Shown here in pieces: positions 5,940-47,939 of a DNA stretch of 64,000 nucleotides. The stretch comes from Mobula hypostoma (lineage: Eukaryota). The stretch is taken from NCBI RefSeq assembly GCF_963921235.1, contig NC_086108.1, forward strand, positions 57,228,001 to 57,292,000, written 5' to 3'. The notes under the pieces were generated by a model. It saw only the letters and a program-made list of their open reading frames with translations, did not search any database and was not told the DNA's origin. Position numbers and translations under genes: made by a program. Each line of letters begins with the position of its first letter. Within the stretch, counting starts at the first letter, position 1.

Positions 5940-8035
5940 CAAAGGAAGGCAACTAAAAGCCATAGAGAGAGAAGAGGTGAAATATGAAGGTAAGCTACCT
6001 AATAATATGAAAGAGGATACAAAACAGTTTTGGAGGCAGAAGAAAGGAAATTATCAGCCAATTAGCCTGACTTCAATGGTTGGAAAGATATTGGAATCTA
6101 TTATCAAGAATGATGTGCCCAGATACTTGAATTGAGGGCACACGATAAGTCCTGATGAGGGACTTATCGACTGTACTCTTTTCCATAGATGCTACCTGGC
6201 CCGCTAAGTTCCTCCAGCATTTTGTGTGTTACATGATAAGTTAGGCCAAATTCAGCATGGTTTCCTAAAGGGAAAATCCTACCCGACAAATCTGTTGCAA
6301 TTCTTTGAAGAAATTACATGCAGGATAGACAAAGGAGATTTTCAGAAGGCCTTTGACAAGGTGCTGCACAAGAGGCTGCTTAACAAGAGCCCATGGAATT
6401 ACAGAAAAGGTACTAGCGTGGATAGAAGATTGCCTGAATAACAGGATGCAAAGCTTGGGAATAAAAGGGGCCATTTCTGGTTGGCTGCTGGTGACTATTG
6501 GTGTGCTGCAGAGGTTGGTGTTGGGACGGCTTCTTTTCACGTTATATGTCAATGATTTGGATGAAGGCATTGACGGCTTTGTGGCCAAGTTTGCAGACTA
6601 CACGAAGATAAGTGGAGGGCCAGGACTAAGATTGGGAGAAGAGCGAAAAAGTGGCAGATGGAATGTAGTGTAGGGAAGTATATGGTTATACACTTAGGTA
6701 GAAGGAATAATGATGTAACACACAAAATACTGGAGAAACTCAACAGGCGAGGCAGCATTGGTGAAAGAGATACAGGGCTGGAGAAGGGGGTAATCTGATA
6801 GGAGAGGACAGAAGATAATGGAAGAAAGAAAAGGGGGAGGAGCACCAGGAAGTGATGAGCAGGTAAGGAGATAAGGTGAGGGAAGGAAAAGGGAATGGGG
6901 AACAGTGAAGGAGGGGCGCATTACTGGAAGTTCAAGAAATCAATGTTCATGTCATCAGGTTGAAGGACTTCTTGAACTTTCTGTAATGCCCCAACAGCAT
7001 TCTCTATTCCCTTTTCCCTCTTTTACCCTATCTCCTTAGCTGCCCATCATCTCCCTCTGTTGTTCTCCTTTTCTGTCTTCCATGGTCTTCTGTCCTCTTC
7101 CATCAGATTCCCCTTTCTGCAGCCTTGTATCTCTTTCACCAATCAACTTCCCAGCTCTTTACTTCACCCCTCTCGGTTTCACCTATCACCTTGTGTTTCT
7201 TCCTCCCCTCCCACCCCCCCCAACTCTGACTCATTTTTTTTCCCTCTAGTCCTGATGAAGGGTCTCAGCCCAAATCGTCAACTGTATTCTTTTCCATAGA
7301 TGCTGCCTGACCTGCTGAGATCCTCCAGTATTTGATGTGTGTTGCTTGGATTTCCAGCATCTTCAGATTTAGGATTTTAGGGAATAAAGGTGTGAACTAT
7401 TTTTCAATTAGGGAGAAAAATTCAAAAATCAGGGGTACAAATGGAATTGGAAGCCATTTTACAGGATTTCTAAAGGTCAACTTGCAGGTTGAGTCGGTGG
7501 TAAGGAAGGTAATGCAATCATAGCAATCATTTCGAGAGCATGAGAATAGAAAAAGCAAGGATGTAATTCTGAGGCTTTATAAGGCATTGGAGAGGGTCCA
7601 GAAGGGGTTCATGAGAATGATCCCAGGAATGAAATGGTTAACATATGAGGAGCATTAAATGGTTGTGGGCCTGTACATGTTGGAGTTCAGAAGAATGAGT
7701 TGGGATCTCATCTCACTGAAACCTATTGAAAGGCCTAGTGGGTGTGAAGAGAATGTTTCCTGCAGAGGTGGAGTCTAGGACCAGCAGGCATTGCCTCAGT
7801 ATTGAGGGACATCTATTCAGAACAGAAATGAGGAAAATTTCTTTAGCCAGAGGGTGGTGTATCTGTGGAACCTTTAAGGCGAAGGTTGATAGGTTCTTGA
7901 TTAATCAGGGCATCAAAGGTTACGGAGAGAAAGTAAGAGGATGGGGTTGAGTGGAATAATAAATTAGCCATGATGAAATGGCACAGCTGACTCAACAGGC
8001 TGAATGGCCTAAATTTGCCTCCATGTCATGGCTTT
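5940..8035 (+). mobile_element. Degenerate CR1 LINE with nested PLE insertions
   Basis: Reverse transcriptase (RT) remnants QHGFLKGKS, DFQKAFDKV, NDLDEGIDGFVAKFAD and a CR1 3' end. Interrupted at 6151-6230 and about 6715-7380. Confidence 0.85.
6715..7370. mobile_element. Inverted pair of PLE 3' fragments
   Basis: Minus copy at about 6715-6965 abuts a plus copy at about 6965-7370. Degenerate hammerhead at 7248-7283. Confidence 0.75.
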
Positions 8036-8229
8036 GTGTGGCGCTTACAAAGCAAGACATAAATATAAAAACTGCAGGCTACACATTAATTGAAACAGCA
8101 CATATGTTTTTTTTCCAATGCAGGTTGGCATATGGGTGTAGGTATTGTCATTCATGAGGCAACCCAAATTAGCTATTCAATAACAGGCTTGCAGCCAAAC
8201 TGAACCATCTCCCCACCCACCCTTCATGG

Positions 8230-9560
8230 AGCATAGAAACAGGACCTTCATCCCAAATGGTCCATGCCAACCGTAGCATCCTCCCTGCTGGGTCCTCTGT
8301 TGCCCACATCCCAGTACCTATTAAAATGCCTCTTCAGTTGCAATTGTATCCGCTGTAACCTCTTCCTCTGGTATTTCATTTAGTACTCACTACCCTCTGT
8401 TAAATCTCTTCCCTCTTGTATCTGTTCTGCATTGTTTAGGACTCCCCAACCCTGGGGATCATACCCCTCATGATCTTATAAACATCTCATTATCCTAAGC
8501 TCCACAATTAAAAATATAGCATGGCCAACTCATAACCTCTAGTCCAGGTAGCATCCTCGTGAATCTTTTATGTAGCTTCCTCAGCTTTACAATGTCTTTA
8601 ACAGGGTGACCAAAACTATACGCAATACTCCAAGTGTGGCCTTACAAACGACTTGGTCAACTACAACATAATATCCCAACTCCTATACCCAATGTCCTGA
8701 CTGATGAAGGCCAGCATGTTAAATGTCTTCTTTACTACCCTGTCTACTTGCTTCCACTTTGTCAACTATCTATACTCATCAGTGCCCTGCCACTTACTAG
8801 ATAGGTCCTACCCTGGTTTGAATGTCCAAAATGCATCTTCTCACCCTTACCCAAGGTCAAATCCATTTGCCATTTCTCAGCCCATCCTTAACTGATCACG
8901 GTGTGTTTGTAGTGTGCTTCACCATCAACAAGAACCCCCAAATTTTTGTAATCAGCAAACTTGTTAATCATGCCATGTACATTAATATCCAAGTAATTTA
9001 CATAAAACAGGAATAACTGGCTGCAACACTGATCCCTGCACCATCACTCTAGTTACAGGCCTCCAGTCTAAAAATCACCCCTCATCTTTACTTCCCATTA
9101 TTGAGTCACCTCATTAGATACCTGGAATCTCATGTGACCCCAACCTTCTGCATCAGCCTGCCACATAGGACTCTGTCAATAGACTTACTAAAGTCCATAT
9201 AGATGACATCCAATGTTCTACCTTCATCTAAAAAGGTACCTTAGTTACTCTTCAATAAACAGCAAAAGATTTATCAGACATGAACTCCCATGCACAAAAC
9301 TATGGTGACTATATCTGAACAGGCCTTGACTATCCAAGTGATGGCAGATCTTGTCCCTCAGAATCCTCAGCAGTAACCTCCTACAACTTTAAGTCAAGCT
9401 CACTAGTCTGTCTATGCTACCCTCTTGAACAATGGGACATTTGCCACCCTCCAGTCTTTTGGAGCTTCGCCAGTGGCTAACAACAAAGGAAATATCCCTA
9501 CAAGGGTCTGCGATTTTTTCCCTGGTCCTCCATAATACCTGGGGATGCATAATGTGCTTC
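8230..9560 (-). mobile_element. Old CR1-type LINE remnant
   Basis: Degenerate matches to CR1 RT and 3' regions (e.g. CAAAACT...ACTCCAAGTGTGGCCT on the plus strand). Confidence 0.6.
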
Positions 9561-10624
9561 AAGACAGTGAAGCAAGAGCTAACTATTCATTGCCCTCATT
9601 CCTTCGACATCTACATTACCTTCATTAGTTCACACAGAGGGGAAATAGATAATCAAAACCTCAGCTACCTCCTGCAGTTCCACCTGTACACAGCCTCGAT
9701 AGTCTTAAGAAAACCTGGTCTTTTTCCTTTTCCCAACTCCCTCCACATCTCACCTCAAGTCTGCAGAGTTTAATCAGAGTCAGAAGACTGGTGGAGGGTT
9801 TCAACCCGAGACTTTGACTGCCCCTTTGCATCTACTGATGTCCCCTGACCCAGTGTTCCTCCAGCATTTTGTTCTTTGGGCAGTAGTTTTACCTCTAAAC
9901 ACACCAGCAACTTTAAGGAGGTGCAAAATTTTTTTGTTATAGGTTCCACATACGTAGAGCTAACAACATCATTCTTGCCAAGGGTACCTGGTTCACGTCC
10001 ATTTATTTTTTTTAATGCAACCAATCTCATGTTCCTACTTCGTGATTGCTATTGGGGGTAGTTAGTCAGCAACTCCATGGAATGTCAGTCTTGACATGTA
10101 ATCAACTAGAATACAAGTTCTAAGCAGTAAAAGGAGTCAAAGAACTACATTGCTGAATTCTCAGAGTCAAACACTGCTTTTGCTGAAAACCGGAAACAAA
10201 ATCAGGAAATGTTGGAAATGCTCAGCAGGTTGTGTAACATTAGTGGAGAGAAAAACCAGGTTAATATTTTGGATATTTCAAGTATTCTCTTGTTTTTGCT
10301 AAATTTCCTGGTTACGTAGCGAATTAAAGGGCAGCCTGTGTTGTCACATGCACAGAAAAGCAAATATGTACTGGAGGAGAAGAGGGAAATTTCAGGCAAC
10401 GTATAAACATATGAAATGCCTTGAGTTTTCGTAGATACTTGGGTGAATGCTTTAAAACCTGTGGGTCATAAAACAAGTATACCGCTCCTCCAAATATTTC
10501 AAACTACTTTTAAAAAATCAAAAAATTACTTTATGATTTACACAAAAAAGACCTGTGAAATTCAAAGACCAGAAAACAAATGATAACCTCAATCAAATAA
10601 GAGCACAAATAAAGCTGGATTGTC

Positions 10625-11430
10625 TAAACAACACACACAATGCTGGAGGAAGTCAGCATGCCAGGCAGATCTATGGAAAAATGTACAGTCAGTAGATTTG
10701 AAAGCTGGGGGGAGGGGGAGAGAGAAACACTAAGCAATAGGTGAAACTTGGAGGAGGGGATGAAGTAAAGAGTTAGGAAGTTGATTGGTGAAAGAGACAG
10801 AGGCCATGGAAGAAAGAAAAAGGGGTGGGGAAAGAGCACCAGAAGGAGGCAATAGGCGGGCAAGGAGATAACATGAAAGAGGGAAAAGGGGATGGGAAAT
10901 GGTGGGGGAGGGGAGGGAGTCATTACTGGAAGTTTGAGAAATTAGGTAGCCTCCAAGCTGATAACATGAACATCAAATGGAATATAGGGTGTTGTTCCTC
11001 TAACCCAAGTGTGGCCTTATCAAGCCATCAAGTTGGAAGCCACACTTAGGTTGCAGGAACAACAGCTTGTATTTTGTTTGGGTAGCCTCCAACCTGATGG
11101 CCCATTGCCTCCCTCTGGTGCTCTCTCCCCCCCCCCCCCTTTTTCCCTCTTCCATAGCCTTCTGTCTCTTTCACCAATCAACTTCTTAGCTCTTTGCTTC
11201 CCCCTCCCCCTCCACCAAGCTTCACCAATCGCCTGGCATTTCTCTCTCCCCTCCCCCCACCTTTCAAATCTACTCCTCAGCTTTTTTCCTCCAGCCCTGC
11301 TGAAGGGTTTCAGTCAGAGATGTCAAATGTGCTTTTTTTCCGTAGATGCTGCTTGGCCTGTTGAGTTCCTCCAGCATTGTGTGTGTGTGTTGCTTGGATT
11401 TCCAGCATCTGCAGATTCTCTTGTTTGTGA
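10625..11430. mobile_element. Inverted pair of PLE 3' fragments
   Basis: Starts ACACACAATGCTGGAGGAAGTCAGC and ends GTTGAGTTCCTCCAGCATTGTGTGT. Contains the remnant LRLQEQQLVFCLGSLQPDG. Confidence 0.75.
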
Positions 11431-12974
11431 CTTGTCTAAAAATGCTTTTGTACCAGATTGTTAGGTGCCAACTTCAATAAAGCTGATGAAAAATTACCTC
11501 TCCTTCCAAAGGGAGATGTGTGAAGATTAAGGTACATTAGATGGCACACAAAAGCACAAATAGGCTAACTAATGGTAACTAAACACTTTGAATTCAGATT
11601 TTATTACATAGGATCCCAAAAATAATTACTGTTGCCACAGGAATTATGTTCTATTCATGTCCATTTTGCAAGCAATATAAAAAGCAGTACTGACCATTTC
11701 CAGATGAATGCCAAAAGAGAAAATTTACATCAAATTTGGTGGCTTTCTTTTTGTGTGTCATAGTTGACATTTAACAAGTGGGTGCCTGCCATTTGTTCAG
11801 CTACAATGTAACTGTTAAACTCACTGTGGTAATAGAAATATACCATTTACTTGATGATGTCAACACCCTTTAATTGGATTCAGTGTTAGCTGCCTTGCAG
11901 TTTCTGATAATCAGTGCAGTGAGAATTAAAAGCATGCCTATCTTCCAATTGCTACTTTGGCTACAGAGGTATGTAGAGACAGAGCCACAAAACACAGCAC
12001 AGAAATGGGTCCTTCAGCCCATCTATTCCATGCCAAACTATCAATCTGCCTAATCCCATCAATCTGCACCCAGACCATAGTCCACCATAACACTCCCGTT
12101 CACTTATCTATCCAAATCTCTCGTAAATTTGAAATTGAACCTGCACCACCGCCTCCGCTGGCCCCTCATTCCACACTCACACCACCTTCTGAGTGAAGAC
12201 GTTCCTGTTCCCCTTAAACATTTCACCTTTCACCCTTAACTCACGACCTCAAGTTCTAGATGTTTTTGTAAGGTTTTGTATGGCAACACCAATGCCTTTG
12301 AATGGAACAGATGATGGAAAGTAGTGGGTAAGCCCAGTCCCTCATAAAGCCTTCCCCACCATTGAGTATACCTGTCTGGTGTGCTGTTGTAAGAAAGCAG
12401 CATGCATCATCTAGGCGCCCCATCATCCAGGTCACGGTCACCTCTTACTGCTGCCACCAGCAAGGTGGTACAGGAGCATCAGGACCCATACCACCGGGTT
12501 CAGGAACACGTATCCATCACACTCCTGAACCAGATAACTGCACTCACCCCATCACTGAACTGTTTCCACAACCTGTGGACTCACTCTCGCTTTCAAGGAC
12601 TCTTCATCTCATGTTCTCGATATTTACTGCATATTTATTATTATTAGTTTTTTCTTGATTTTTGTCCTTGCAAAGTTTGTTGTCTTTTGCCCTTTAGTTG
12701 TTTGACTGTGCTGTTAGGTGTGGTCTTTCACTGATTTTACCCTTTCTTGAATTTACTGTGAATGCCCGCAAGAAAGTGAATTTTGAGGTTGTAAATCATG
12801 ACAAACATGTAATTTGATAGTAAACTTACTTTGAACTTTGTACTTTAGTCTAAGCCAAAGTCAGCAGAAAAGTGTGTTTGTACTTACTTTCTCTATACTA
12901 CTCATAATTTTGATTACCTCTATCAAATCTACCCTCATTCTCCTACACTCTAGGGAATAAAGTTCTAACCCATG

Positions 12975-15900
12975 ATGCTTAATCTGTGATGCTTCACTCC
13001 CAAATGAGCTCAACACCTTTTATGCATGCTTTGAAAGGCGGATAAAACTACACCAATGCAAATCCCTGCAGCAACAGTCACCCTCTGACGTTTGTCTCGA
13101 AGGCTGATGTCAGAACGTCTTCAAGAGGGTCAACCCTTGCAACGCATCAGGCCCTGATGGTCTATGGGTAAGGCACTGAAAATCTATGTCAAACGACTGG
13201 CGGGAGTGTTCAAAGACACCTTTAATCTCTCACTGCTGCAGTCAGAGGTTTCCATCTGCTTGAAAAGGGTGATAATCAAACCAAAGCCATAAAGAGGAGG
13301 TTGAGCTGCCTCACAAATATCACACAGTTGCATTCACATCCACCGTCATAAAGTAAATAACCAATTTCCCTCGGGATCAATAAAGTATGACTATGACTAT
13401 GACTATGAGAGGTTGGTCATGGCCAGAATCAACTCCTGCCTTAGCAAGGAACTATATCAGCTGCAGTTTGCTGACTGCCACAACAGATCTACAGCTGATG
13501 CAATCTCAGTGGCTCTCCACTCGGCCTTGGATCACCTGAACAACAGCAATATCTACATCAGGCTGCTGTTTATTGATTACATCTCAGCATTCAACACAGT
13601 CATTCCCTCAGTTGTATTAAAACAAGCTCCAAAGCCTGGGCCTCTGTACCTTCCTCTGCAACTGGATCTTTGACTTCCTCGTTGGGAGACCATAGTCTGT
13701 GCGGATTAAAAAATAACATCTCCTCCTCGCTGCCAATCAACACAGAGGCACCTCAAAGATACGTGCTTAGCCCACTGCTCTACTCTCTCTCTACACCCAC
13801 AACTAGGCACAGCTCAATGCCATCTATAAATTTACCACTGACACAACTCTTGTTGGCAGAATTTCAGATGGTGACGGGGAGGGGTACAGGAGCAAGGTAG
13901 ATCAGCTGGTTGACTGTTGTCACAGCTACAAATTTGCATTCATTGTCAGTAAGACCAAGGAATTGATCGTTGACTTCAGGAAGGGGAAGTTGAGAGAACA
14001 CTCATCAGTCCTAATCGAGGGATCAGCAGTGGGAAGGGCGAGCTGTTTCAAGTCCCTCAGTGTCAACATCTCTGAAGATCTATCCTGGGCCCAACATATT
14101 GATGTAATTACAAAGAAGGCACAATAACAGCTATATTTCATTAGGAATCTGAGGAGAGCTGGTATGCCAAAGACTCTTGCAAATCTCTACGGACGTACCT
14201 TGGAGAGCATTGTAACGGATTGCATCACTGTCTGGTATGGGGGTGGGGGGGGGTCACTGCACAGGACTGGAAAAACAGAAACATAGAACATAGGTGCAGG
14301 AGTAGGCCATTCGGCCCTTCGAGCCTGCACCGCCATTTATTATGATCATGGCTGATCATCCAACTCAGAACCCCGCCCCAGCCTTCCCTCCATACCTCCT
14401 GACCCCTGTAGCCACAAGGGCCATATCTAACTCCCTCTTAAACATAGCCAATGAACTGGCCTCAACAGTTTGCTGTGGCAGAGAATTCCACAGATTCACC
14501 ACTCTCTGTGTGAAGAAGTTTTTCCTAATCTCGGTCCTAAAAGGCTTCCCCTCTATCCTCAAACTGTGACCCCTCGTTCTGGACTTCCCCAACATCGGGA
14601 ACAATCTTCCTGCATCTAGCCTGTCCAATCCCTTTAGGATCTTATACGTTTCAATCAGATCCCCCCTCAATCTTCTAAATTCCAACGAGTACAAGCCCAG
14701 TTCATCCAGTCTTTCTTCATATGAAAGTCCTGCCATCCCAGGAATCAATCTGGTGAACCTTCTTTGTACTCCCTCTATGGCAAAGATGTCTTTCCTCAGA
14801 TTAGGGGACCAAAACTGCACACAATACTCCAGGTGTGGTCTCACCAAGGCCTTGTACAACTGCAGTAGTACCTCCCTGCTCCTGTACTTGAATCCTCTCG
14901 CTATAAATGCCAGCATACCATTCGCCTTTTTCACCGCCTGCTGTACCTGCATGCCCACTTTCAATGACTGGTGTATAATGACACCCAGGTCTCGTTGCAC
15001 CTCCCCTTTTCCTAATCGGCCACCATTCAGATAATATCTGTTTTCCTATTTTTGCCGCCAAAGTGGATAACTTCACATTTATACACATTAAATTGCATCT
15101 GCCATGAGTTTGCCCACTCACCCAACCTATCCAAGTCACCCTGCATCCTCTTAGCATCCTCCTCACTGCTAACACTGCCGCCAAGCTTCGTGTCATCCGC
15201 AAACTTGGAGATCCTGCATTTAATTCCCTCATCCAAGTCATTAATATATATTGTAAACAACTGGGGTCCCAGCACTGAGCCTTGCGGTACCCCACTAGTC
15301 ACCACCTGCCATTCTGAAAAGGTCCCGTTTATTCCCACTCTTTGCTTCCTGTCTGCTAACCAATTCTCCACCCACACCAATACCTTACCCCCAATACCGT
15401 GTGCTTTAAGTTTGCACACTAATCTCCTATGTGGGACCTTGTCAAAAGCCTTTTGAAAATCCAAATATACCACATCCACTGGTTCTCCCCTATCCACTCT
15501 ACTAGTTACATCCTCAAAAAATTCTATGAGATTCGTCAGACATGATTTTCCTTTCACAAATCCATGCTGACTTTGTCCGATCATTTCTCCGCTTTCCAAA
15601 TGTGCTGTTATCACATCCTTGATAACTGACTCTAGCAGTTTCCCCACCACCGACGTTAGGCTAACCGGTCTATAATTCCCCGGTTTCTCTCTCCCTCCTT
15701 TTTTAAAAATTGGGGTTACATTAGCCACCCTCCAATCCTCAGGAACTAGTCCAGAATCTAACGAGTTTTGAAAAATTATCACTAATACATCCACTATTTC
15801 TTGGGCTACTTCCTTAAGCACTCTGGGATGCAGACCATCTGGCCCTGGGGATTTATCTGCCTTCAATCCCTTCAATTTACCTAACACCACTTCCCTACTA

Positions 15901-16900
15901 ACATGTATTTCACTCAGTTCCTCCATCTCACTGGACCCTCTGTCCCTTACTATTTCTGGAAGATTATTTATGTCCTCCTTAGTGAAGACAGAACCAAAGT
16001 AATTATTCAATTGGTCTGCCATGTCCTTGCTCCCCATAATCAATTCACCTGTTTCTGTCTGCAGGGGACCTACATTTGTCTTTACCAGTCTTTTCCTTTT
16101 TACATATCTATAAAAGCTTTTACAGTCTGTTTTTATGTTCTCTGCCAGTTTTCTCTCATAATCTTTTTTCCCCTTCCTAATTAAGCCCTTTGTCCTCCTC
16201 TGCTGAACTCTGAATTTCTCCCAGTCCTCAGGTGAGCCACTTTCTCTGGCTAATTTGTATGCTACTTCTTTGGAATTGATACTATCCCTAATTTCTCTTG
16301 TCATCCACGGGTGCACTACCTTCCTTGATTTATTCTTTTGCCAAACTGGGATGAACAATTGTTGTAGTTCATCCATGCAACCTATTAATGCTTGCCATTG
16401 CATATCCACCGTCAATCCTTTAAGTGTCATTTGCCAGTCTATCTTAGCTAATTCACGTCTCGTACCTTCAAAGTTCCCCTTCTTTAAGTTCAGAACCTTT
16501 GTTTCTGAATTAACTATGTCACTCTCCATATTAATGAAGAATTCCACCATATTATGGTCACTCTTACCCAGGGGGCCTCTCACGACAAGATCGCTAATTA
16601 ACCCTTCCTCATTGCTCAAAACCCAGTCCAGAAAGCTGCGGAAGGTTGTAAACTTAGCCAGTTCGACCACTGGCCCTAGCCTCCCCAGCATCGAGGACAC
16701 CTACAAAAGGCAATGACTCAAAAGGGCATCATCCATCATAAAAGACCCATCACCCAGGACATGCCCTCTTCTCATTGCTACCATCAAGGTGGAGGTACAG
16801 GAGCCTGAAGACATAACTCAACATTTCAGGAACAGTTGCTTTCCTTGCACCATCAGATTTCTAAATGAACAATGAACCCATGAACATTACCTCAGTATTT
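12975..16900 (+). mobile_element. Degenerate Rex1/Babar-type LINE split by a CR1 insertion
   Basis: Remnants LQFADCHNRSTADAI, IRLLFIDYISAFNT and APQRYVLSPLLYSL. The homology resumes at about 16632 after the CR1. Confidence 0.75.
14276..16631 (-). mobile_element. Young 5'-truncated CR1 LINE (ORF2: endonuclease end plus RT)
   Basis: ORFs 15027-16700 and 14365-15000 contain LGKSDH, KSPGPDG, NYRPVSLTS, DFQKAFDKV, GVPQGSVLGP and KFADD. One apparent 1-nt frameshift near 15035; CTATGTT-type 3' tail. Confidence 0.95.
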
Positions 16901-16959
16901 TCTCTCTTTCTGCACTACTTACTTACATTTACATATCTACTTATTATACTACTACCTTT

Positions 16960-29265: not shown

Positions 29266-29577
29266 CTGGAAAAAATTATAAAAAATAAGGCAAGTTTTAT
29301 CAGAAATTTGGTGTTCAAAACATGCCACCGTTACTATATTTAATCAAGAGGAAGAGCATCCTTTCAGCATTCTTTGCAATACGTATTTTTAGTATGTTCC
29401 TTGGGTATTTTAGTTCTACCATTTTCTAGTTGAGGGGATTGAAAATTGATCCCAACACTGTACCAAGACTGTACTTCAGTAAGTCACTGAATCTGCTTTC
29501 ACACAACAGGTTACCCTAGTGGCTTTTCGTAACGTAGACTGGGTTAGTGTTTTCAATTGCACGGATTCCCATCAAGT

Positions 29578-29705
29578 CCTGACGAAGGGTCTCGACCTGA
29601 AACGTCGACTGCACCTCTTCCTAGAGATGCTGCCTGGCCTGCTGCGTTCACCAGCAACTTTTATGTGTGTTGCTTGAATTTCCAGCATCTGCAGAATTCC
29701 TGTTG
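29578..29705 (+). mobile_element. Short PLE-derived insertion headed by an intact hammerhead motif (29575-29610)
   Basis: Perfect 12-bp TSD TTCCCATCAAGT (29566-29577, 29706-29717). Motif AGTC-CTGACGA-AGG GTCTCGA CCT-GAAA-C-GTC-GACT. Confidence 0.85.
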
Positions 29706-30067
29706 TTCCCATCAAGTACTTGTTTTTCCTTCTGCTACTAAACACTGTGCTTATAGCATAAGCAACCTAAAGAGCCAATACACGTACTGGGAAAGACTGA
29801 CGCGGAGTTAATAACTAACCTTTTAAAATATTTTACTTGAGTTATCTTACAAATGTGTACACTTGCTCTACATGTACTAGACAGCTTACAATACAGAAAC
29901 GCACAAATGCACCCTAACCTTAATGCCAAAATGGAAGAATGCTCAACTCAAAATAATCCTTTAACATAGATGGTGATGAAAATTTTCTTTCAGAGCTGGT
30001 TAGCAGTATCGGTTTAAGCGCCAGAGTTAAACTGAAGCTTTCTGTGAATCTATTAACAAGTCTTTAC

Positions 30068-34447: not shown

Positions 34448-34572
34448 TTTTGGAGATGAGAAGTTGCAATCTAGTTTCCGCTTCTCAATCGAATGGGCCA
34501 TCTCAGTCCACTCACTAATACGGTCATCACGATAGCCTAGCGAAACATTCAACGTAACCACAGCGTCGTCAG
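34448..34572 (-). CDS. WLS: Wntless coding exon 3 (125 bp)
   Basis: (A)DDAVVTLNVSLGYRDDRISEWTEMAHSIEKRKLDCNFSSPK. Sites tttccag / gtatgt; phase fits the neighbouring exons. Confidence 0.96.
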
Positions 34573-35965: not shown

Positions 35966-36031
35966 CTAAAAAAAACGCATACAAAGAAATGGTGCAGGGC
36001 TTTACACATTTGTAGTGTTGTTCGGTATATA

Positions 36032-36610
36032 AGGTTCCTTAAGGTTGTTACAGCCAGGGGACGTAGTGGGGACAAGCTCCCACTACCTATTAAATGCACC
36101 CAGTGACATGAGCCTCAAATAGCCTCTGACAACCAAGTCCTAGCTCCTGGCCTTCATGTGTGCCTTAGCTACTAAGCCCAGCAGAACCATTTCTACTGGC
36201 AGAAGGGGTGGGTTACTCGTACCTTAACACCAGTTGCTTCAGGTAGATGGGGCTCGTCAGCCATTGTTAGCAGCTCATCCAGGAGGAAAACTCTGATATC
36301 AAACCTCCTCTGCCTTGCGGTTATACCCACTCATGGGGAAGGCCTCGGGAGTAACCCCAAGGAAAAATCTGGAGCTGGAATCCCCAAGGCAGTCCTGTGT
36401 TGAGTTCAGCATGATGGGCAATTCCCGTGACGCCTCAGGTGCCAAACTCTATTGGTCTCTGCTGTTCGTTTGGATTCATTAGCTGCATGGAGAGGAGGAG
36501 CATGCTGCCTGGGCAACAGCGTGTTCTCCATATCGTACTGCCCTGGCCTGCGTATCCTGTAGACCAGCTACAATGCAACTCCCATGGCTAACCCCAACCA
36601 ATGGAGGGCA
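36032..36610 (+). mobile_element. TSD-flanked non-coding insertion, possibly an RTE-related non-autonomous element
   Basis: Flanking TCRGTATATA (36022-36031, 36611-36620). More GC-rich than its surroundings, with a hairpin GTAGTGGG/CCCACTAC near the 5' end. Family assignment is tentative. Confidence 0.5.
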
Positions 36611-38269
36611 TCAGTATATACACTGTCAGTGTTAACAGTTCTCTACAGTGGGAGTGTTTGCATGTTCTGCAGGTAACATCATTGCCTCTCAGAGCCTCCT
36701 GGTGTGACACACACTTCAAGAGGCTTGAGCAGCTTCTACCCCAGACTTCGCCCCCTCAAAGTCTACTGGCAGAAGAATCCTTGGCTACCATCCTTCCCCC
36801 GTAACACGTGTATTGCCTGCCCTGAGTTTCAGTGTGTCCCTCAGCAACCTGGCAGCATTCCCTCATGGACATCTTGTTGTAGAGATAGATCAATCTGGGG
36901 CTTTCACTGAGATGATGATCTTCTTCTATCAGTACTTGATGTCAGCCTCTGTGATCACCCCTGGGAACAGACCGAAGATCGGAAATTGCTCCACAGCTGC
37001 TCGGGATGAACCATGACAATGAATATTGCATCCTTCTACAGACTTTCTATGCAAGTACACAGTCCTGCAAGGAGCTGGGCAACCTGAAGGAGGCCGAGAA
37101 CAGACAGGCTGGTGTACAAATGACGAGTTCTCCACTGACAGGCAAGGCCCAACACCAACTTGAGTAACATCAACTTGTATTCTGCCCGAGTAACCTACAA
37201 CCCAAAAGGATGAATGTTTAAATTGTCAATTTCAAGCAATCCTCATCTCCCGTGCTCACCACCTCTCCTTCCAAACCACCTCCAGTCCTCCAATATTTGC
37301 TCCCTTTCCCAAAGCAGCTCTCTAGCAACCTATCACCCATTTTTGTCCCCTTTCCCCCTCATGGTTCCATGCATGAAGTACCCATGGACCCCTCCCACAT
37401 GTTCTCCATCCCTAGTGATTCCCAATCTCTTCTTCCTCACTTATCAGATTCCAACGCTGGTATAATTTTTGTTTCCACCCATCACCCTCCAGCAACTGCC
37501 TCCACCTGCACTTTCACCCCCCACCAGCTCCGTCCTCCCCACCTCCAATTGTCAGCTTTCACATCACACAGCTGCCTCGACTTTCCAACTCCACCTTCCC
37601 TGTCCCCACCCATTCTTCAAACACCTCTTTTATTCAAGTTAGTAAAGATAGATATCTGAAATCAATAAATTGTTAAAATATAATAAGGATGCTGTGATAA
37701 CGTATCTTCACTTACTGGTTAATTTGAAAAAAAGTCTGAGCAGAGGATTAAATCTAAAATAATGGCTGCATATTATTTGACACATCCAAATTTTGAGATT
37801 GGATGACTGGCTGTAAAACATATCAGTTATCAACTACTCTTGGTGAGGATTGCTATTTCCCAGCATGACTTTACCTTATAATTGGCTGTCACCAGCCAGA
37901 GGTCATTATGATGCCCTTGTGCCATTAAGGCATGGATGATGTAGATATTGCAACCGTTACCAAGCTGTTGATTACCATAACATACAATCTTGTAGATATT
38001 TACATAAATGTCTTCCAATCTCTTTACAAAAGTTTACTGAAGATAGGTAGGCACACTTATGAATATACTTCATTGTAGGAACTGAGGGAAGAAACTATTC
38101 TAAATCATCACCTTTGACTTCTTACCCAACTTATTCTCCTATCAAATACTTTTAGATGACAATATAATCTCAGGGTAGTTATTCTTTGTTTGGAAAAGGA
38201 GGCAAGCATCAATGAATTGTTTTATCACAGAAATCTCAAAAAGCAGAGTTGAAGTGGGTGCGTCCGCCA

Positions 38270-38790
38270 AAACAGACAGGATCTCCCAGTAGCCACCCAC
38301 TTCAACTCTGCTTCCCACTCCCATTCAGATATGTCCATACATGGCCTCCTCTACTGCCATGATGAGGCTAAACTCAGGTTGGATGAGCAACACCTCATAT
38401 ACCGTCTAGGTAGTCTCCAGCCCCTTGGTATGAACATAGAATTCTCCAACTTCCGGTAATTCCCTCCCCCTCCCTTCCCCTATCCCTATGTCACTCTGCC
38501 CTTCTCCCAGCTTCCTATCACCTCCCTTATGGTTCCACTTCCTTCTACTACCCATTGTGTTTTCCCCTATTCTTTCTTCACCTTTTCTGCCTATCACCCT
38601 GCTTCCCCTTACTGGTTTTTCACCTGGAACCTACCAGCCTTCTCCTTCCCACCGTCCCCCCACCTTCTTTATAGGGCCTCTGCCCCTTCCCCCTTCAGTC
38701 CTGACGAAGGGTTCCAGCCCGAAACGTCGACCGATCTTTTCCACGGATGCTGCCCGACCTGCTGAGTTCCTCCAGCGTGTTGTGAGTCTT
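38270..38790 (+). mobile_element. Penelope-like 3' fragment with intact hammerhead motif (38698-38731)
   Basis: 38280-38459 encodes DLPVATHFNSASHSHSDMSIHGLLYCHDEAKLRLDEQHLIYRLGSLQPLGMNIEFSNFR* (GIY-YIG C-terminal part). Followed by GTC-CTGACGA-AGGG TTCCAG CCC-GAAA-C-GTC-GAC. Confidence 0.85.
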
Positions 38791-39189
38791 GTTTCCCCCA
38801 TGATTATTGTCATATTGCCCTTTAAGCATGCTTTTTCTATCTCCCATTGTAATCTGTAGACCACATCCTTACTGCTGTTTGAGGATCTGTATAAAACTCC
38901 CACCAGGATCTTTTTACCCTTTTATTTCCTTAGCTCCATCCACAATGATTCAACACCTCTTTCTAATGATTTGATTTCCTTTTTTAAACAACAGAGCAAT
39001 GCTGCTCCCTCTGCTTGTCCTTTTGATACAATGTGCATCCTTGGACATGAAGCTCTAATCTTCTTTCAGCCATGATTCAGTGACACCTACAACATCATAT
39101 CTGCCAATCTGCGTCTGTGCTGCAAGTTCATCGACTGCGCGCATTCAAGTATGAATACACTTAACCATGCAGGCGAGCCAGATCAAATC

Positions 39190-39415
39190 ACGCCACTGCC
39201 TGCAAGGAGTTTGTATGTTCTCCCCATGACTACACGAGTTTCCTCTGGGTGCTCTGGTTTCTTCCCACAGTTCAAAGACGTACTGGTTAGTGGGTTAATC
39301 GGTCATTGCAGATTGTCCTGTGATTAGCCTAGGAGTAAAACAGGGTATGGCTGGGTGGTGCAGCTCAAAGGGCCAGAAGGGACTAGACCGTGCTGTACCT
39401 CAATAAATTAAATTA
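39190..39415 (+). mobile_element. V-SINE (HE1-like) fragment
   Basis: Central domain GGAGTTTGTATGTTCTCCCC...TTTCCTCTGGGTGCTCTGGTTTCTTCCCACAGTTCAAAGACGT. Confidence 0.7.
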
Positions 39416-39805
39416 GTTATCCACAGACCAGGATTCTGACAAAACTAAAATGAGCACAGGTACCCTCTCCATAAATTAAGCAGTTCCTTTAACATAAAAG
39501 GAGGCCATTTACTCTATTCACTCTCTGCCAGTTCTCAATGCAATTGCATCGATTCCCCTTTTCCACTTATTTCCAGATAAGCAGTTGCTTCTCTCACACA
39601 TTGACCCCTAACACCGATCAACACTGAAGTAAATTTCCAGAATGTCGTCGAGTTGTGGTAAGAAACCGGTTCACAGGGCTACATTGTGAACACAGGATGA
39701 ACATGCAAATTCCACAGACAGTGTGGGAGATTTAGATGATACTCAGATTACTGGAGCAGTGCCACTGCATCCTCCTACAATTTCCCAGAATTTTATGTTT
39801 CATTA

Positions 39806-40384
39806 TGTAACACCCTGGGAAAGGTTTCACTGCAAACGTAATGGTTTTTCCTGTAACAGCAGTGTTTAGGTTAAGGCTAGAGATAACGGGGGCTTTGGAA
39901 TGTGCGCCGTCCAACAAAAGGAGTGATTTTTCTTGTTGTGTGCCTGAGACCGAGGTGATCTGGGTCTTTTGTTCGGCGGAAGATGGAGAGAGGAGAAGCC
40001 AGAAAGGAGAGGTGGTAGACACCAGGAAGGAGAGGATTAGGAGTGGGGCTGGGAGTTGACAAAGCCCAGAGAAAATCGATGGAGGACTGGTGAAAAGGAA
40101 ACCACGAGCTCCAACTTGTGCACATTAGACTGTTTCATTAAAATGGGCCTTTTTCTTTTTGTTTACCTTACTAAACCTTTAATCAAATTAAGAATTATAA
40201 AGCTAAGTCATTTACTTGCATGTGGTGTACTGTTTGTTATTTAGTGGTGCTGATTTGTAACAGGGTAACACATCACACAGCATCCATGCAAACAGGAGGC
40301 TTTGCAGCTCAATCTCATATGTTTGGTGGGGCCAGAGGTTATCTTCCCTGGACTTACACAGCCGACAGAACCTTGTGGGTTACA
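39806..40384 (+). mobile_element. Solo LTR (579 bp)
   Basis: TGTAAC...GTTACA termini; 4-bp TSD ATTA at 39802-39805 and 40385-40388. Orientation is tentative. Confidence 0.8.
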
Positions 40385-40867
40385 ATTATATTGACAAATT
40401 CTAGCTCAAGTAGTTAATGGTTTCAATTGAGGAAGAAGGCTCTGTCCTAGCCATCAAACAGTGGAATGGTGTACTTTCTTCCTTTTCCAGTTCCCCACTG
40501 CCATCCTGCAACCGTTCTTGTCACCAAACTGCTATCAGACAGCCCAAACCCACTGTCTAACACACTTTAAAAATAGACCTGCAGTGATTTCAGAGCAGCT
40601 TAGAGAGAGCACAAGAACTAACATGAAAGTCATTATTCAGCCCCCCAACATTTGTGTTGCCCCTTAGCTAATACAATCTGAAATAAATCTCAAAATGCAA
40701 TCATTTAAATACAAAAACAGGTGTATTGATTCATTTTTTTAAATGAATGGGGACCAACCACTGACAAAATACACTTCGATTCATATAAACATTAAAAAAA
40801 CATGCAACACACAAAATGCTGGAGGAACTCAGCAGGCCAGACAGCATTTACGGAAAAGAGTAAACCA

Positions 40868-40899
40868 CTGACATTTCAGGCCAAGACCCTTCATCAGGT
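40868..40899 (-). ncRNA. Hammerhead motif with core retained, in WLS sense orientation
   Basis: Minus strand reads AC-CTGATGA-AGG GTCTTGG CCT-GAAA-T-GTC. Stem I is disrupted. Confidence 0.45.
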
Positions 40900-43164
40900 C
40901 AGCATCCTTGTTTTGTAATGGAGCTTTTCTATACAGGAATAACCGAAGAGAAATAGCAGAGGGAATTCAGTATCACAAGGTCACCCAGCGCTGTTTGTGT
41001 ACTGCAATGATAGAGGATCATATTACAGAGATCTACCAGTGAACCACACTATTCATTACCTGCTGTTAGATGTCTTATCCATTTATAGACTTTTATCAGC
41101 AGTATAGACTATTTCAGAATAAAATGGCATTGGATTTTAAAAAAGACTAATCCTTGACTACAGACCTGAAGTGATTGGCTTTTGCTGGAATCTAATTTCA
41201 TGGGCACCAGATCTCCCATTAGTATTAAATGGCATTACTTGTGAAGCTGGTCCACCAGAGCAGACATTGAGCTGTGAATGGGATTGCCCCAAAACACTGT
41301 CCACAGATTGGCAACATTCACACCACTCATGTACAAAACCACAAAATGAAAGTGGCTTTAATGCTACGTGATCCAAATGATAAAGTACACATATTTTAAA
41401 AAGCTTGATTATATATAGCACTAATTTTATTAAGCTACCCACCAACATTTAGAACCATATTAAGTTTCCTGAGACATAATATTTGCATAGGCCACACAAA
41501 CCATGATTAACTGTATAATTTTCTGTCTGTGCTGATTTAGCTCAATGCACACATGGTAATAGAAAGCAGTTACTGCTGCTTCCTAAGACTGCATTCCAGT
41601 CAGCCTGCACAGGTCACACAAACCCCCCCAAATAATTTTTCTTGACCGCAAATAAGAAAATATTTTTCCAAGTTTCATTATTTTAATTTTCAATATATGA
41701 CAAGGTCCACACCAATTCAAATGAAGGATTTCTACACGTCAAAACAGAAGTGAATCAAGAAAGATTAGAAATGTTTGAAACAAAACCTTTTTGTGTAGGT
41801 TGTCTTTATAGAAAAACAGAACAGAAAACTTGTGGGCAAATGCCTGATTAATGCTAGCTCTCCACAGCCTGAGGTGCATGCCAATCTAACATAATGTCAC
41901 TCCACTGTGTCTGTCACCCCTGACGACTAATCCACTTCAACAGCTGTGTTATTCCTGGAGAACTGCCAAATGTTGTTGAAGCAGAGTATTTATTTCATCT
42001 TGATTGCATGAATAAGCTTCATTTCACCCACAAGGGATATGATTACTATTTGCAGATTTTGCTAACTCTTTTATCAATTACCTTCTAACTCAATCAAAAC
42101 TCAAGCAGTCCAAGATGTAGATCCAACTATATCTGAAGTTTCTTTTTTAAAAAAGACCATTCTGTACAACTCTGGTCATAATATTAATTTTAACCATATA
42201 ATCATATAACAATTACAGCACGGAAACAGGCCATCTCGGCCCTCCTAGTCCGTGCCGAACTCTTACTCTCACCTAGTCCCACCGACCTGCACTCAGCCCA
42301 TAACCTTCCATTCCTTTGTTGTCCATATAGCTGTCCAATTTAACTTTAAATGACAACTTTTTCTCTTCATCCACCCTTGTGACTAATAACAGCAGAAAGC
42401 TGTGGATGGAATGAAGGATTTCAGTGGAGAAAGTACTAAAGTCAAAGTTAAGGTTATTGTCATATGCATCGGTGGAATGAAAGAAAACTTACTTGCAGCA
42501 GAATCACCACCACACATGACCAACGTGACCAAATAAACAACATCCACAAAAAAAACATACGTTACACCAAATTTTACAAGAAATAACACAATTTGGACAA
42601 AAAATAAGTCTATTTTAGTGCAATGATTATGATAACACTTCAATTCTTTCAAAATCGACAGTCTATACTTGAATATTGTATTTTGTTCACGTAAGTGGTC
42701 ATTGTTTAGACTGAAACCTGAGAATGGTGTTTACTTGATATTAACCAAGAAACACTAATAATTTCTTTACTGATATTCAAATATGCAATACAAAAGTTCC
42801 AATGGAAGGTAAAAGGAATGGAAACTCCTTTTCATCAGCGCATCATTGGCTTAAACAGGATCCTTGTGACTTCATTGGATACCCACAGAGCTCAGAATAA
42901 GATAGGTCAATAGATTAGGTTCCATTTTCCTTTACAAGTAGATACAAAACATTCTTGTTGCTGTAACTTTATTGCTTCTACAACTCTCAGGCTGACAAGT
43001 GTAAAAAGCAATTCCAGGATCCCATGAAACATTATTTCTCTGATTAACATAAAATTGAAAATGCTGTACTAAAAGTAAGCCTCCCATACAAAATGCTGGA
43101 GGAACTCAGCCCGAAATGTCAACTGTTTATTCTTTTCTATAGATGCTGCCTGACCTGCTGAGAC

Positions 43165-45438
43165 TCTTTTTTCAAGGACTGGAAAGGAAGGGGCAAGATG
43201 CCAGAATTAAAAGGTGGGAGAGGGGAAAGAGGCTAGCTGGAAGTTGATAGTTGAAGCCAGGTGGGTGGGAAAGGCCAAGTGCTGGAGAAGGAAGAATCTG
43301 GTAGCAGAAGAGAGTGAACAATAGGAGAAAGAGAAGGAGGAGGGGAACCAGGGGGAAGCAATAGGCAGGTGAGAAGTGAAAGGTTAGAATGAGGAATAGA
43401 GAAAGTGGAAGCGGGGGGGGGGGGGGGGCGGAATTTGTTCACCGGAAGGAGAAATCGATATTCATGCTGCCATCAGGTTGGAATACAAGGTGTTGCTCCT
43501 CCATCCTGAGGGTGGCCTCATCTTGGCACAAGTGAAGGCCATGGATTGACACATTGGAATGGGAATGGGAATTAAAATATTTGACCACCGGGAAGTCACA
43601 CCTGTGGCATATGGTGCGGAGGTGCTTGACGAAGCAATTGCCCCTATTTATGACAGGTCTCACCGATGTAGAGGAGGTCGCATCTGGAGCACAGCTGACG
43701 CCAGCAGAAGTGTTGCCTCACCTGGAAGGACTGCCTGAGGCCCTGAATGGAGGTGAGGGAGGAGGTGAATGGGCATGTGTAGCACCTAGGCCACTTGCAG
43801 AGTTAAGTGCCTGGACAGATAGGCCAGGGAATCACAGAGACAGCCATCCCTGCGGAGAGTGGCGGGGGGGCGGGGGGTAAAGATATGTTTAATGGTAGGA
43901 TCCCTTTGGAGATGGTGGAGATTGTGGATGTGGAGAGTGATGGGGTGGTAGGCAAGTTCAAGAGGGACTCTATCACTATGATGGCGGCAGGAAGATGGGG
44001 AGAGTAGAGATGTACGGGAAATTGAGGAGATGTCTGTGTGGGCAGCATCAATAGTAGAGGGAGGGAAACCCTGTTCTTTGAAAAAGGAGGGCATCTCAAG
44101 TCCTGGAATGGAAAGCCACACCCTGGGAACAAATGTGGTGGAGACAAAGAAACTGAGAAAAAGGAATAGCATTCTTACAGGAGATGGGGTGGGAAGATGT
44201 ACACTCAGATCCCGCATAACACTACCCCACATAGTGCTGATTCATTATAACGTGGTTATTCAATTCTTCATTGAAATTTTTTTTAAATGACAAAAAAAAT
44301 TCATTCTAAACAACAATTAAAACTTCTCAAGAGCAGCAACCATTACAGTTAACAGCATTCAATCAGCCAGTGAGAGTAATTTATATAGGCTGAGCCACTC
44401 AAAGCCAATCACATATTAGTTTACGCTCTGCCTCTCCCGCGTGTGTAAACGTTCTTGCACCCTTACCAATTTAGTCCATTTTTTTCACCCATAATGCCGG
44501 GAAAACGGCCTGCAGCTTCCAGCAAGGGTAGCACATCTCAGGTGTCTAGGAAAAGCATTGGCACGGATGTGAAACTGCAAGTGATAGGCCGTGTGGAAGT
44601 TGGCGACCGTCTGGTTGATTTCGGTGCCTCTTTGAAAGTTTCAATGCTCATGGATAACGACCCTGACTGGGAGCGAAGCAAGAAGACAAAGAGAGGCGTC
44701 CCTGACATGATTTCCTACTACAGAGAACTGCTTCATGAGAGGAAACTTAAGAAAAGGCAGTCAAATCTCAAGGCCTACTTGAAGAAGCAGCTAAGTTACA
44801 GGAGGACCCACAGCCTGGTCCCTCCACCACCCGCTTCCTTTCGCTGCTGCTGCGGCTCCACCAATGTACAGGTTGGGCCTATTTGTGTTTGTTATTCCAC
44901 GAATCACTGTCTATACATTAAATAACATCAGATTTATCGGGTTTGATTTAAAAAAATAATCAGACATGTCCATTTACATCATGTTATAATCACCTCACGT
45001 AGAGCTGATCTACATAGCACTCCACCTCGATGGACACATCCTCAGCATTAAACAGGGCCTGAGTGTATTGTTGAGATAACCATGGAAGTTGGTAGGTTTA
45101 TTAAAGAAGTCGGTTGACCGTTTGTCTCCATAGATGGAGACAGAGGGATGAAGAAAGAGGAAGGAGGTGTCAGCAATGAGGCAAATGAACTTAAAGTGGA
45201 AGTTAGAGGCAAAATTGATGAGCTCAGCGTGGGCGTATGAAGCAGCGCTAATGCAGTCGTCAATATAGCGGAGGAAGAATTGGGGAATAAAACCGGGGAA
45301 GTCTTTGTACATAGACTGTTCTATATAGCAGACGAAGAGGCAGGCATAGCTTGGGCCCATGCGAGTGCCCACGGCGACCGCTCCGGTTTGGAGAAAGTGA
45401 GAGGATCCGAAGGAGAATCCGTTTAGGGTGAGGACCAC
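43165..45438 (-). mobile_element. Degenerate Penelope-like retroelement (RT and GIY-YIG remnants) interrupted by a Tigger
   Basis: ORF 45010-45438 has FLQTGAVAVGTRMGPSYACLF...FLRYIDD. Downstream remnants HLQRDPTIKHIF and LRMEEQHL...MNIDFS. Confidence 0.85.
44202..45065 (+). mobile_element. Non-autonomous Tigger/pogo element (864 bp)
   Basis: TA TSDs at 44200-44201 and 45066-45067. TIRs CACTCAGATCCCGCATAACACT versus CACTCAGGCCCTGTTTAATGCT (reverse complement). The ORF fuses N-terminal RKSIGTDVKLQVIGRVEVG to C-terminal DPDWERS...RQSNLKAYLKK. Confidence 0.8.
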
Positions 45439-45697
45439 GGTGAGAAGCCTGTTTAAAAATCAGTCCATTTCTGGCCTAGTGGATAACTATGCAAATGAAG
45501 AGATCAAGCAAAATTAATCAAATGAAAAGCAGTTAACAGTTTCTAGGCTAGACACATTATACCATGCTAGTAAAAATAATTATCAGTACATAATGCATGT
45601 GATAATTAGAAACAGAATCTCTAGATTCATCTGTACTTACTGATTTATCCATTTCCCCATCCTAATATTGTTGTCAAACCCACTGAGCTACCCCAGT

Positions 45698-45789
45698 CCT
45701 GAGGAAGGGTCTCAGCCTGAAATGTCAACTGTTTTTTTTCCCCTCCCATAGGTGCTGGCCTGCTGAGTTCCTCCAGCATTTTGTGTGTG
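45698..45789 (+). mobile_element. Short PLE-derived insertion headed by a hammerhead motif (45694-45731)
   Basis: 13-bp TSD GAGCTACCMCAGT (45685-45697, 45790-45802). Motif CAGTC-CTGAGGA-AGG GTCTCAG CCT-GAAA-T-GTC-AACTG. Confidence 0.8.
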
Positions 45790-47939
45790 GAGCTACCACA
45801 GTGCACCCCAGCCACCCTGCAGATGTCATCCAATTAGTTAAAACAACTTGCCGAATAGGAATGAGTTCTAAATTCAATCTAACAAACACATTTTACAAAA
45901 GGCACTAGTAGTTAAAAACAAAAAGCCCAGAAGCAATAACACCAAAAGCAACAATCCTAAAGCAGATTCAGTGAGCCAAAACCTTGATTCCGCTTTCTAT
46001 GTGTTTTGTCTAATCTGCAGATTATTTACGAATCAACGCTGCTGAATCTGAGGAGTCAAGCTATGTGCCAGACAGAAAAGTATGTCATCAAGAAGCTCTA
46101 ATTAATTAGGACAGAAAGATACTTTAGTTTTACTAACATTATGCTGAAGCAATCCCTCAGTTTTATAAACCTGAAAATCAAATTCATATTTCAACCAGAA
46201 AAATCTTAAATGCGAAAGACTAACAATTACATTTTTGCTTCTAGTGATGCAATTTTTGAACCAAATTATAAACTCAGATTCTCTAACAGAAAACGAGTCT
46301 TCACAATACTGTAAGAAAAAACTAGAATTGAGGGGAGCCCAAATACCATTGAGTAAACTGTAACAGGAAATATTTTCAGATTTCATGTGACCTCTGGGAT
46401 CTGACAATCAAATTATCATTGCCCATGCAACATTATTTTGGAGAGAGAAATCTAGACTATGTTGCTCCAAAAGCAATCATTGTCCAGCACTCCTAGGAAA
46501 GATACTCACAGCTATACACTAAGTTTGAAACTTTTGTCCTTCAGACGCTCCTGTAGCTAGCTACCCATTCCCTACCTCTCTTTCCACCTCAAAAGAGCCA
46601 CATTCACAATCTGGGTGCTGGTAATGGAGTCCCTTACCAACACAATCACCGAGTGATCACTCCCATAACCATTCACCAATCCTCCAGGCCTGAATCTCCA
46701 TCGTCTCACAACCAGAACACTCTAAGCCCATCAACTTGTCCAATTGCTGACCCAGCTCTAAGCCTCAATCAGACCATGAGCAATATCCAATCTATCTTCA
46801 ATGTTAGCTGGCACATTTCAAGTCCACCTAGCAGCATTCGAGAAGTAGCAGACCATGACCAAAATGGTCCATGATCCAAAGTTGCTAAGGCCACCTAGTA
46901 TAATAATTAGGGTACTTTGAACCTCCAGGCCAGAATCCTTGCTTAAACAGCGAGTATTTAAGAAAATATAAATCAGAAAGCTTTCAAATTAATTCCCCAA
47001 AATTGTAGGTACAGTAACATTTTATTAAAGTTTAGGGATGGGGGCACAAATCAGAATAATTGTTACCCAGTAATACCTGCTGGTAGGAAACATTTTGTGA
47101 CACAGAAGGCCAATCAACCCACCAAATCTATGTCAGCTCTCTGAGCACACCCATTTACTTCCTTATAATCTATTCTCTCTTATTTCTCTCAATTCTCCTG
47201 CCACTGGGGGCAATTTACAGGAGCAAAATAATCTAACAGCATAACAACACTTCGTTAGGAAGTAAGAAGAACCTACACAGTTGTGGAGAAAATGTGAACT
47301 CCGCACAGATCACATTAGAGGAAAGGATCAGTTTGTGCCTGTGTTGTTCTTTGCCGGACCAACACAATGTCAATTCCAATCAGAGCCATAAACTGTTGAG
47401 TGTGGGTCAAGTGTATAGTCTGGGGGAAAAAAACTTTATAGGTTCAGATTGAGTAAGACCTTGCAGTTCCAGCCCTGCTCAGTATTTCATTCAGTTCAGG
47501 ATGTTTTGCTAAGAACTCTTATCTTGATCAATAATAGGAGCTTCTCCTTCACACCAGCTCAAAGATCTGAAACACTGAAGCAGTCCATGCCTGCGTGTGG
47601 CAAAAGCCACACAGCATTCAAACATGGACTAAGCAGTGACAGGTAACATTCATGAAGGTAGGTATCCTTTGGAGAGTGTCTCTTGACACCAAAAAAAAAG
47701 AATCACTGTACTGATTCCCACAATGAAGGGTTCATCCGTAAAGAGAGGTTAAGTCGGTTGGGCTTATACTTATTGTGAAATAGAAGAGCAAGAGAAATTA
47801 TTGAAACATACAAGATTCTAAAGGGACACACACAAAATGCTGGAGGAACTCAGCAAGGTCTGAGGGGAGCTGGTAGGATTGGTTTCTGAAAATGTTTCCC
47901 GTATTGGGAGGTATGTAAAAACCAGGCAGTATAGTTTCA

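Follow-up and report, generated by a model that had tools for sequence, protein, structure and literature searches.

Introduction

Endonuclease-bearing (EN+) Penelope-like elements (PLEs) of the Neptune type are described, in passages of Craig et al. 2021 (PMC8557442) and Arkhipova et al. [quoted passage not shown] According to the same passages, they form partial tandems with pseudo-long terminal repeats (pLTRs), are heavily truncated at the 5' end, can include an inverted 5' copy, and are flanked by target site duplications (TSDs), with a tail of 30-40 bp at one end and occasional microhomology at the 5' junction. These features are shared by the element analyzed here, a hammerhead-bearing PLE of Mobula hypostoma found in a stretch of 64,000 nucleotides (NCBI RefSeq assembly GCF_963921235.1, contig NC_086108.1, positions 57,228,001 to 57,292,000, forward strand), hereafter called the window. 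The element differs from what those passages describe in that its 5' ends have a mode, resolved to the base, at helix I of the hammerhead, in tandems attributed to a second pass of copying, and in a candidate spliced circle. Positions in the element are numbered from the first C of the motif CCTGA (position 0), and the AGT upstream of it occupies -3 to -1.

The Poseidon PLE of Anolis (Frangieh et al. 2024, PMC11167929) is comparable in its two internal RT initiation sites, which define the tail, and in its AT-rich targets; both target strands are cut and extended and hammerhead cleavage is dispensable, which we also count as likenesses. The sections concerned report that, in vitro, priming occurs internally at two sites, the substrate is uncleaved RNA, and RNA downstream of these sites is required. 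Poseidon belongs to another clade and its ORF begins inside the hammerhead, whereas here the long frame has its first ATG at +167, and those sections map 3' ends and give no 5'-end hotspot. The minimal hammerheads of metazoan PLEs, as set out in parts of Cervera and de la Pena 2014 (PMC4209133), resemble the present one in a short helix I, an extra base before helix II, a palindromic helix III, and their occurrence mostly as single truncated copies. In that account, an intron of Drosophila virilis ends at the 5' end of helix I, which matches the acceptor position found here. The same parts propose circles formed by self-cleavage and ligation, whereas in the present element the template ends appear to lie off the cleavage site and the arrays carry a GT/AG junction. 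Animal non-LTR retrozymes, in the portions of PMC7229834 and bioRxiv 10.64898/2026.07.22.740005 that treat them, are likewise PLE-derived, hammerhead-bearing, and non-coding. Two arrays of 310-bp units described below resemble nascent non-LTR retrozymes with long TSDs, whereas the inserts of the window are single truncated stubs with no tandem units and no fixed monomer.

Truncation, inverted copies, tails, pLTR hammerheads, internal priming, and the descent of retrozymes from PLEs are already in print in the sources cited, including passages of PMC6155905. Our literature search, which had most subscription journals outside its reach, found no report that PLE 5' ends peak at helix I or that a PLE forms a back-spliced circle. 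We take the hotspot, the evidence for a second pass, and the spliced arrays to be variation within an ordinary PLE family and not a new element. They touch on questions that passages of PMC8557442 and PMC11167929 leave open, namely, how PLEs choose and complete their templates and what the hammerhead does.

Results

The 5' ends of the copies cluster at the 5' edge of hammerhead helix I. An exact 33-mer from the 3' part of the element had 43,227 matches genome-wide, and the first 100 listed places, located in the first 6.2 Mb of one contig, were taken as a sample for which 5' ends were not a criterion. The 5' end falls between +62 and +13 in eleven of these copies; of the other 89, 47 end from +12 to -33, and 42 extend further. 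The endpoints are not evenly spread, as more than half of the young copies reaching the hammerhead end within 46 nt; the end rate is 1.15% of copies per nucleotide within -33 to +12, compared with 0.08-0.22% elsewhere (0.08-0.14% beyond -33). A genome-wide count with one core pattern, covering 0, -2, -3, and -5 and passing over -1 and -4, gave 2,790, 5,711, 6,986, and 1,435 apparent boundaries, respectively, with 54,288 copies continuing through -4. Boundary classes were sorted by script and by eye, using the first 30 loci per class and 100 loci at -3; the latter comprised 29 direct junctions, 38 inverted copies, 32 continuing variants or older subfamilies, and 1 internal join. The estimated direct junctions amount to about 650 at 0, 2,300 at -2, 2,000 at -3, and 240 at -5. 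The mode is thus at A-3/G-2 of AGTCC, the 5' edge of helix I, about tenfold over -5, and a shoulder spans -33 to +12. About 18% of the core-matching copies had their apparent boundary at -2 or -3, a figure that still includes variants and leaves -1 uncounted. An earlier note on this DNA had taken the identical start of three inserts, at CCTGA, to be non-random; clustering beyond chance is confirmed, and its mode is at A-3/G-2 rather than at CCTGA.

Splicing was considered as a source of these ends. An upstream exon joined at -5 was rejected as a common class, with 0 of 30 loci. The splicing of host exons to the alternative AG at -2 is not favored as the origin of the -2/-3 mode, because at most direct junctions the TSD abuts the element, overlaps it, or lies within a few bases of it; such splicing is possible at the few direct junctions with long fillers.

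In the longest copies, the sequence continues into a frame that has RT motifs, a C-x4-C-x2-C linker, and a GIY-YIG domain. Pfam matches to the ORF (RVT_1, E=2.8e-5; GIY-YIG, E=2.6e-4) were each slightly under the curated cut-off, and the ORF copies examined were frameshifted. RT and GIY-YIG occur, as in EN+ PLEs, in a single ORF contiguous with the sequence of the stubs. The earlier suggestion that PLE proteins mobilize the stubs is supported. The linker, located between RT and endonuclease ahead of the GIY-YIG domain, conforms to the CX2-5CxxC pattern, common to Nematis as well as Neptune in the relevant passage of PMC8557442. Judged by sequence, the element is an endonuclease-bearing PLE, of the Neptune type by motif alone. 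Its long copies are partial tandems (pLTR) with a unit of 3,478 bp, and a truncated copy was present upstream in 10/10 long loci. There are two 3' ends, at +95 (untailed) and +131 (tailed), and head-to-head rows had exactly one tailed arm in 48/48 cases (42 distinct insertions, six of which were counted from both arms), which suggests that in two-armed insertions each priming site is used once per event. The +95 and +131 arms, as judged by eye, end in one and the same zone, and a length-limited stop was rejected on these grounds. TSDs, identified for 68 of the 100 sampled copies, are AT-rich (32% GC) and mostly 9-15 bp long in the direct-junction set. The endonuclease region also holds a GTGAGT donor-like site (L113:4317-4322), and several joints in contigs guessed to be RNA start at most two bases away from it.

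Long copies can reach a second, upstream hammerhead, at which the 5' ends behave differently. An exact pattern across the boundary between tail and ORF had 385 matches genome-wide, of which 93 were examined at 90 loci (the first 96 listed places less one already sampled). Among these were 59 ORF-bearing copies, of which 44 extend as far as +12 of the upstream hammerhead, with 6 ending in the zone and 1 at -3. Zone ends therefore number 47/89 on the first passage versus 6/44 at the upstream hammerhead (Fisher p=1.1e-5). Since the upstream hammerhead seldom stops long copies, its sequence alone is no general block. Fourteen of the 59 ORF-bearing copies (within L351-L440) end in the part of the upstream pLTR that surrounds the priming sites, from +49 to +126, where a bound protein may form a block.

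The remaining 34 of the 93 matches are short. Most are tandems in which the stub is preceded by a segment ending between +163 and +459; the restart points lie mostly between +160 and +340, with clusters at 198-207 and 263-293. We read these tandems as putative jumps from the 5' end of a template onto a template 3' end. Nineteen pairs were scored, leaving aside the spliced array, rows with no adjoining stub, three joins to far-upstream ORF sequence, a duplicate, and an ambiguous inverted row. Both passes end at one base in 4/19 pairs (-3, -4, -23, and +43; permutation p=0.00025), as would be expected if one RNA were copied twice. Taken with the contrast between passages, the tandems favor putative short RNAs, roughly 200-300 nt long, with a 5' end inside the zone.

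The three inserts of the window that had been reported to open with CCTGA and to be flanked by repeats ending in AGT do so. Insert 1 (6151..6230, + strand) is a tail-less 3' stub of the older PLE subfamily within a LINE RT fragment, its ribozyme having lost the helix II/GAAA portion by deletion; it lies between the TSD copies ACACGATAAGT (6140..6150, + strand; ACAYGATAAGT), whose AGT at 6148-6150 also equals the 5' strand of the element's helix I, and ACATGATAAGT (6231..6241, + strand). The duplicated stretch is present once in most of the paralogous LINE copies compared, so the flanking repeat is a true TSD, and these paralogues mostly have A in place of the last T of the window, so AGT is private to the insert 1 target. 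Insert 2 (29578..29705, + strand) is a tailed stub of the young subfamily with its 3' end at about +128, and TTCCCATCAAGT is found on both sides (29566..29577 and 29706..29717, + strand), the left copy sharing a 3-nt microhomology with the AGT of the element. Insert 3 (45698..45789, + strand) is again a tail-less stub of the older subfamily. Its flanks, GAGCTACCCCAGT (45685..45697, + strand) and GAGCTACCACAGT (45790..45802, + strand), both read GAGCTACCMCAGT, and the left copy has CAGT at its end, as in the usual TCCAGT of the older subfamily. The window has 13 copies with a hammerhead core, and most of the other ten continue into the upstream pyrimidine tract of the element. A longer young copy (2901..3141, + strand) passes the hammerhead into the upstream sequence with TACTAAC, the pyrimidine tract, and CAG|TTAGT; AGT is therefore encoded by the element. 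The three inserts are 5'-truncated ends of an autonomous PLE and no separate short interspersed element (SINE). Such stubs, which lack what lies downstream of the tail, were probably dead on arrival.

Insert 1 lies inside one of the CR1/L2-type LINE copies of the window (14365-16700, - strand, and about 5000-8000), and decayed fragments of the RT region of the older PLE subfamily are present at 43786-44241 and 45010-45459 (- strand).

The AGT at the junctions has its counterpart in the element, which reads TTAGT in the young subfamily and TCCAGT in 13/25 extended copies of the older one. Among direct -3 junctions with a TSD, AGT or more was shared in 3/17, and in 2/14 after the removal of three rows that came from ranking by likeness to the window copy, a proportion above chance (p=0.025). 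At most direct -3 junctions, the ends meet bluntly, with filler, or with 1-2 shared nt. Of the 68 unselected TSDs, just 2 end in AGT, both distant from the hammerhead. The claim that TSDs end in AGT as a rule fails on these two counts, and AGT as a target motif was likewise rejected. Where AGT is present in both TSD copies, microhomology accounts for it, as had been proposed. That all three sites noted in the window end in AGT is most readily explained by selection of the most visible cases. A comparable process is the microhomology-mediated 5' joining of LINE-1 and Alu, reportedly described by Zingler et al. in 2005, in which the TSD end is said to overlap the element by 1-5 nt, as here; to our knowledge, no ribozyme-edge hotspot is involved there.

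The minimal type I hammerhead motif is complete in insert 2 (29575..29610, + strand) and in young copies, namely, the CUGANGA and GAAA motifs, helices I and II, the UH site, and a palindromic helix III. In insert 2, these are helix I (AGUC/GACU), the core CUGACGA, helix II, GAAA, and the palindromic ACGU, with helices I and II present in the predicted fold and self-cleavage predicted after 29606. The hammerhead is degraded in inserts 1 and 3. An Rfam scan of the window returned no hammerhead family at E<=1 and only three miRNA-like hairpin matches. At the predicted cleavage site, +29, there were 1,041 matches with A or G before the site, T having been left out because CpG decay was to be avoided; of 30 loci, 2 were direct, and one of these was an internal duplication. 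Self-cleavage as the setter of template ends was rejected on this near absence of direct junctions. Upstream of the hammerhead, the element has TACTAAC or TACTCAC, a pyrimidine tract, and CAG at -8 to -6. An alternative hairpin at -13 to +11 (L125:600-623; window 3042-3065) would pair the catalytic core in upstream-extended RNAs and cannot form in RNAs beginning at -3. This predicted hairpin could possibly act as an off-switch for the ribozyme in extended RNAs, with a fold no better than that of shuffled sequences.

A search with one observed junction gave six matches at two loci, which are arrays of 310-bp units with four junctions (L441-L444, G000:C2:157,816,4xx-157,817,7xx) and two junctions (L445-L446, G000:C50:58,412,4xx-58,412,9xx). 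Each array has its own TSD, and the two differ from one another at four shared sites. The junction joins +304, which is followed by GT in the full element, to -5, which is preceded by AG. Identical repeated GT/AG junctions in two independent arrays are the outcome expected of rolling-circle copying of a back-spliced circle, and a circular RNA intermediate is a candidate explanation for both, although two loci make a small sample. The arrays, and not the three inserts of the window, have the tandem hammerhead units of 150-450 bp typical of retrozymes. Among the 15 of 114 joints listed for contigs guessed to be RNA, there was no GT..AG joint to the acceptor.

The window contains other mobile sequences. 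Two DNA transposons with long inverted repeats and transposase frames, which we take to be of the Tc1/mariner type, are located at 50398-51993 and 61110-62615. A long, presumably L1-like element at 52782-58181 (- strand) has ORF1-, endonuclease-, and RT-like frames in several pieces. A nested inverted repeat of 314 bp at 3439-3752, with a weak match to a miRNA family, is probably a miniature inverted-repeat transposable element.

Discussion

Considering the distribution of ends, the contrast between passages, and the tandems, we find it probable that 5' ends pile up at the hammerhead edge because the RNA that is copied begins there and is primed internally. According to this proposal, short RNAs from about -3 to +200..+300 would arise from the 5' end of ORF-bearing copies, the PLE protein would bind these hammerhead-headed RNAs, internal priming at +95 or +131 would take place on nicked target DNA, and copying would proceed to the RNA's own 5' end. 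The cDNA end would then be joined to the target bluntly, with filler, or by 1-5 nt of microhomology, which would sometimes be AGT by chance. The likeliest source of the RNA 5' end would be transcription initiation at the initiator-like YYAGTCC; a close alternative, which would fit equally, is that a longer RNA is trimmed as far as the hammerhead, which is paired and bound by protein. The initiator consensus is YYANWYY, and TTAGTCC and CCAGTCC both fit it with A-3 as +1.

The earlier note had considered RT stalling at the ribozyme. In this scenario, the template is a longer RNA, and RT would halt on it or be dislodged from it at the hammerhead, at the alternative hairpin (-13 to +11, loop -2 to +1), or where splicing factors occupy the branch point and acceptor directly upstream of the hammerhead; joining would then occur by microhomology or filler. 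It would suit a zone (-33 to +12) that spans branch point, pyrimidine tract, and AG, an acceptor that appears to be used in the 310-bp arrays, full-length copies that do not start at -3, and a hairpin predicted by RNAfold with its loop at the mode (z -0.42). However, 38/44 long cDNAs cross the identical sequence, the mode lies on the distal side of helix I, whose 3' strand RT has by then copied, and same-base ends on both passes at the non-modal -23 and +43 are not expected from stalls. With zone ends at 6/44 versus 47/89, stalling is disfavored, and we regard it as unlikely while giving it some weight. Considerably less probable is a separate SINE or retrozyme of 100-135 nt that begins with a hammerhead, whose own copies would be transcribed and which the PLE protein would move. 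The sharp mode, where true junctions number roughly 4,000-5,000 at -3 and a similar figure at -2, and the initiator-like motif at the start would be in line with it, and Penelope internal promoters are known from passages of PMC2377424. Against it, the ends form a continuum from +54 to full length rather than the fixed 5' and 3' ends of most SINE copies, 42/100 copies reach past -33, and the 3' ends fall at the usual two PLE initiation sites; stubs and long copies share diagnostic variant sites in alignments, and about 40% are head-to-head structures with variable joints. Jump tandems, moreover, carry +132..+300 sequence that is missing from stubs, so those templates derived from ORF-bearing copies. 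That the endonuclease prefers AGT-ended sites, or that hammerhead self-cleavage sets the template end, is hardly credible. The three AGT-ended sites in the window and the excess of microhomology of at least 3 nt at -3 speak for a role of AGT, but AGT is nearly absent from the ends of unselected TSDs, which are merely AT-rich, and cleavage would place ends at +29, where direct junctions are nearly lacking.

Several observations weigh against an RNA that begins at the hammerhead edge. Fillers ending in G, found in 7/10 cases at -3 and 5/17 elsewhere, would be a weak hint of a cap trace, and the excess falls short of significance (p=0.057); at -3/-4, the five jump junctions have A, AA, or nothing as filler, and none has G. 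Among ORF-bearing copies reaching -3, 1/42 begins there; a start at -3 therefore does not define the ends of full-length copies. The second pass went beyond the first in 3/19 pairs, a rarity short of significance (p=0.083). It is conceivable that the long cDNAs are a selected subset with higher processivity. According to passages of PMC2377424 and PMC4209133, the D. virilis start site is not at the hammerhead but upstream of the intron that ends at helix I. The position-resolved counts concern chiefly the young subfamily, and two of the three window inserts belong to the older one; the RNA 5' end at the hammerhead is itself deduced from genomic copies.

More tentatively, this PLE may make a dedicated short hammerhead-headed RNA that yields stubs when linear and, when back-spliced from the +305 donor to the acceptor, a 310-nt circle that the PLE enzyme copies repeatedly. 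If this is true, linear RNAs starting at helix I would yield tens of thousands of stubs, and retrozyme-like arrays would be born straight from a PLE via the spliceosome rather than via ribozyme cleavage. The finding that most short copies end at a defined helix I position, and not at the cleavage site, bears on the choice of template by PLEs, and the spliced circle is a possible route from PLE to retrozyme. Together, the helix I ends, the one-use priming sites, and the spliced circle make questions on the PLE mechanism testable.

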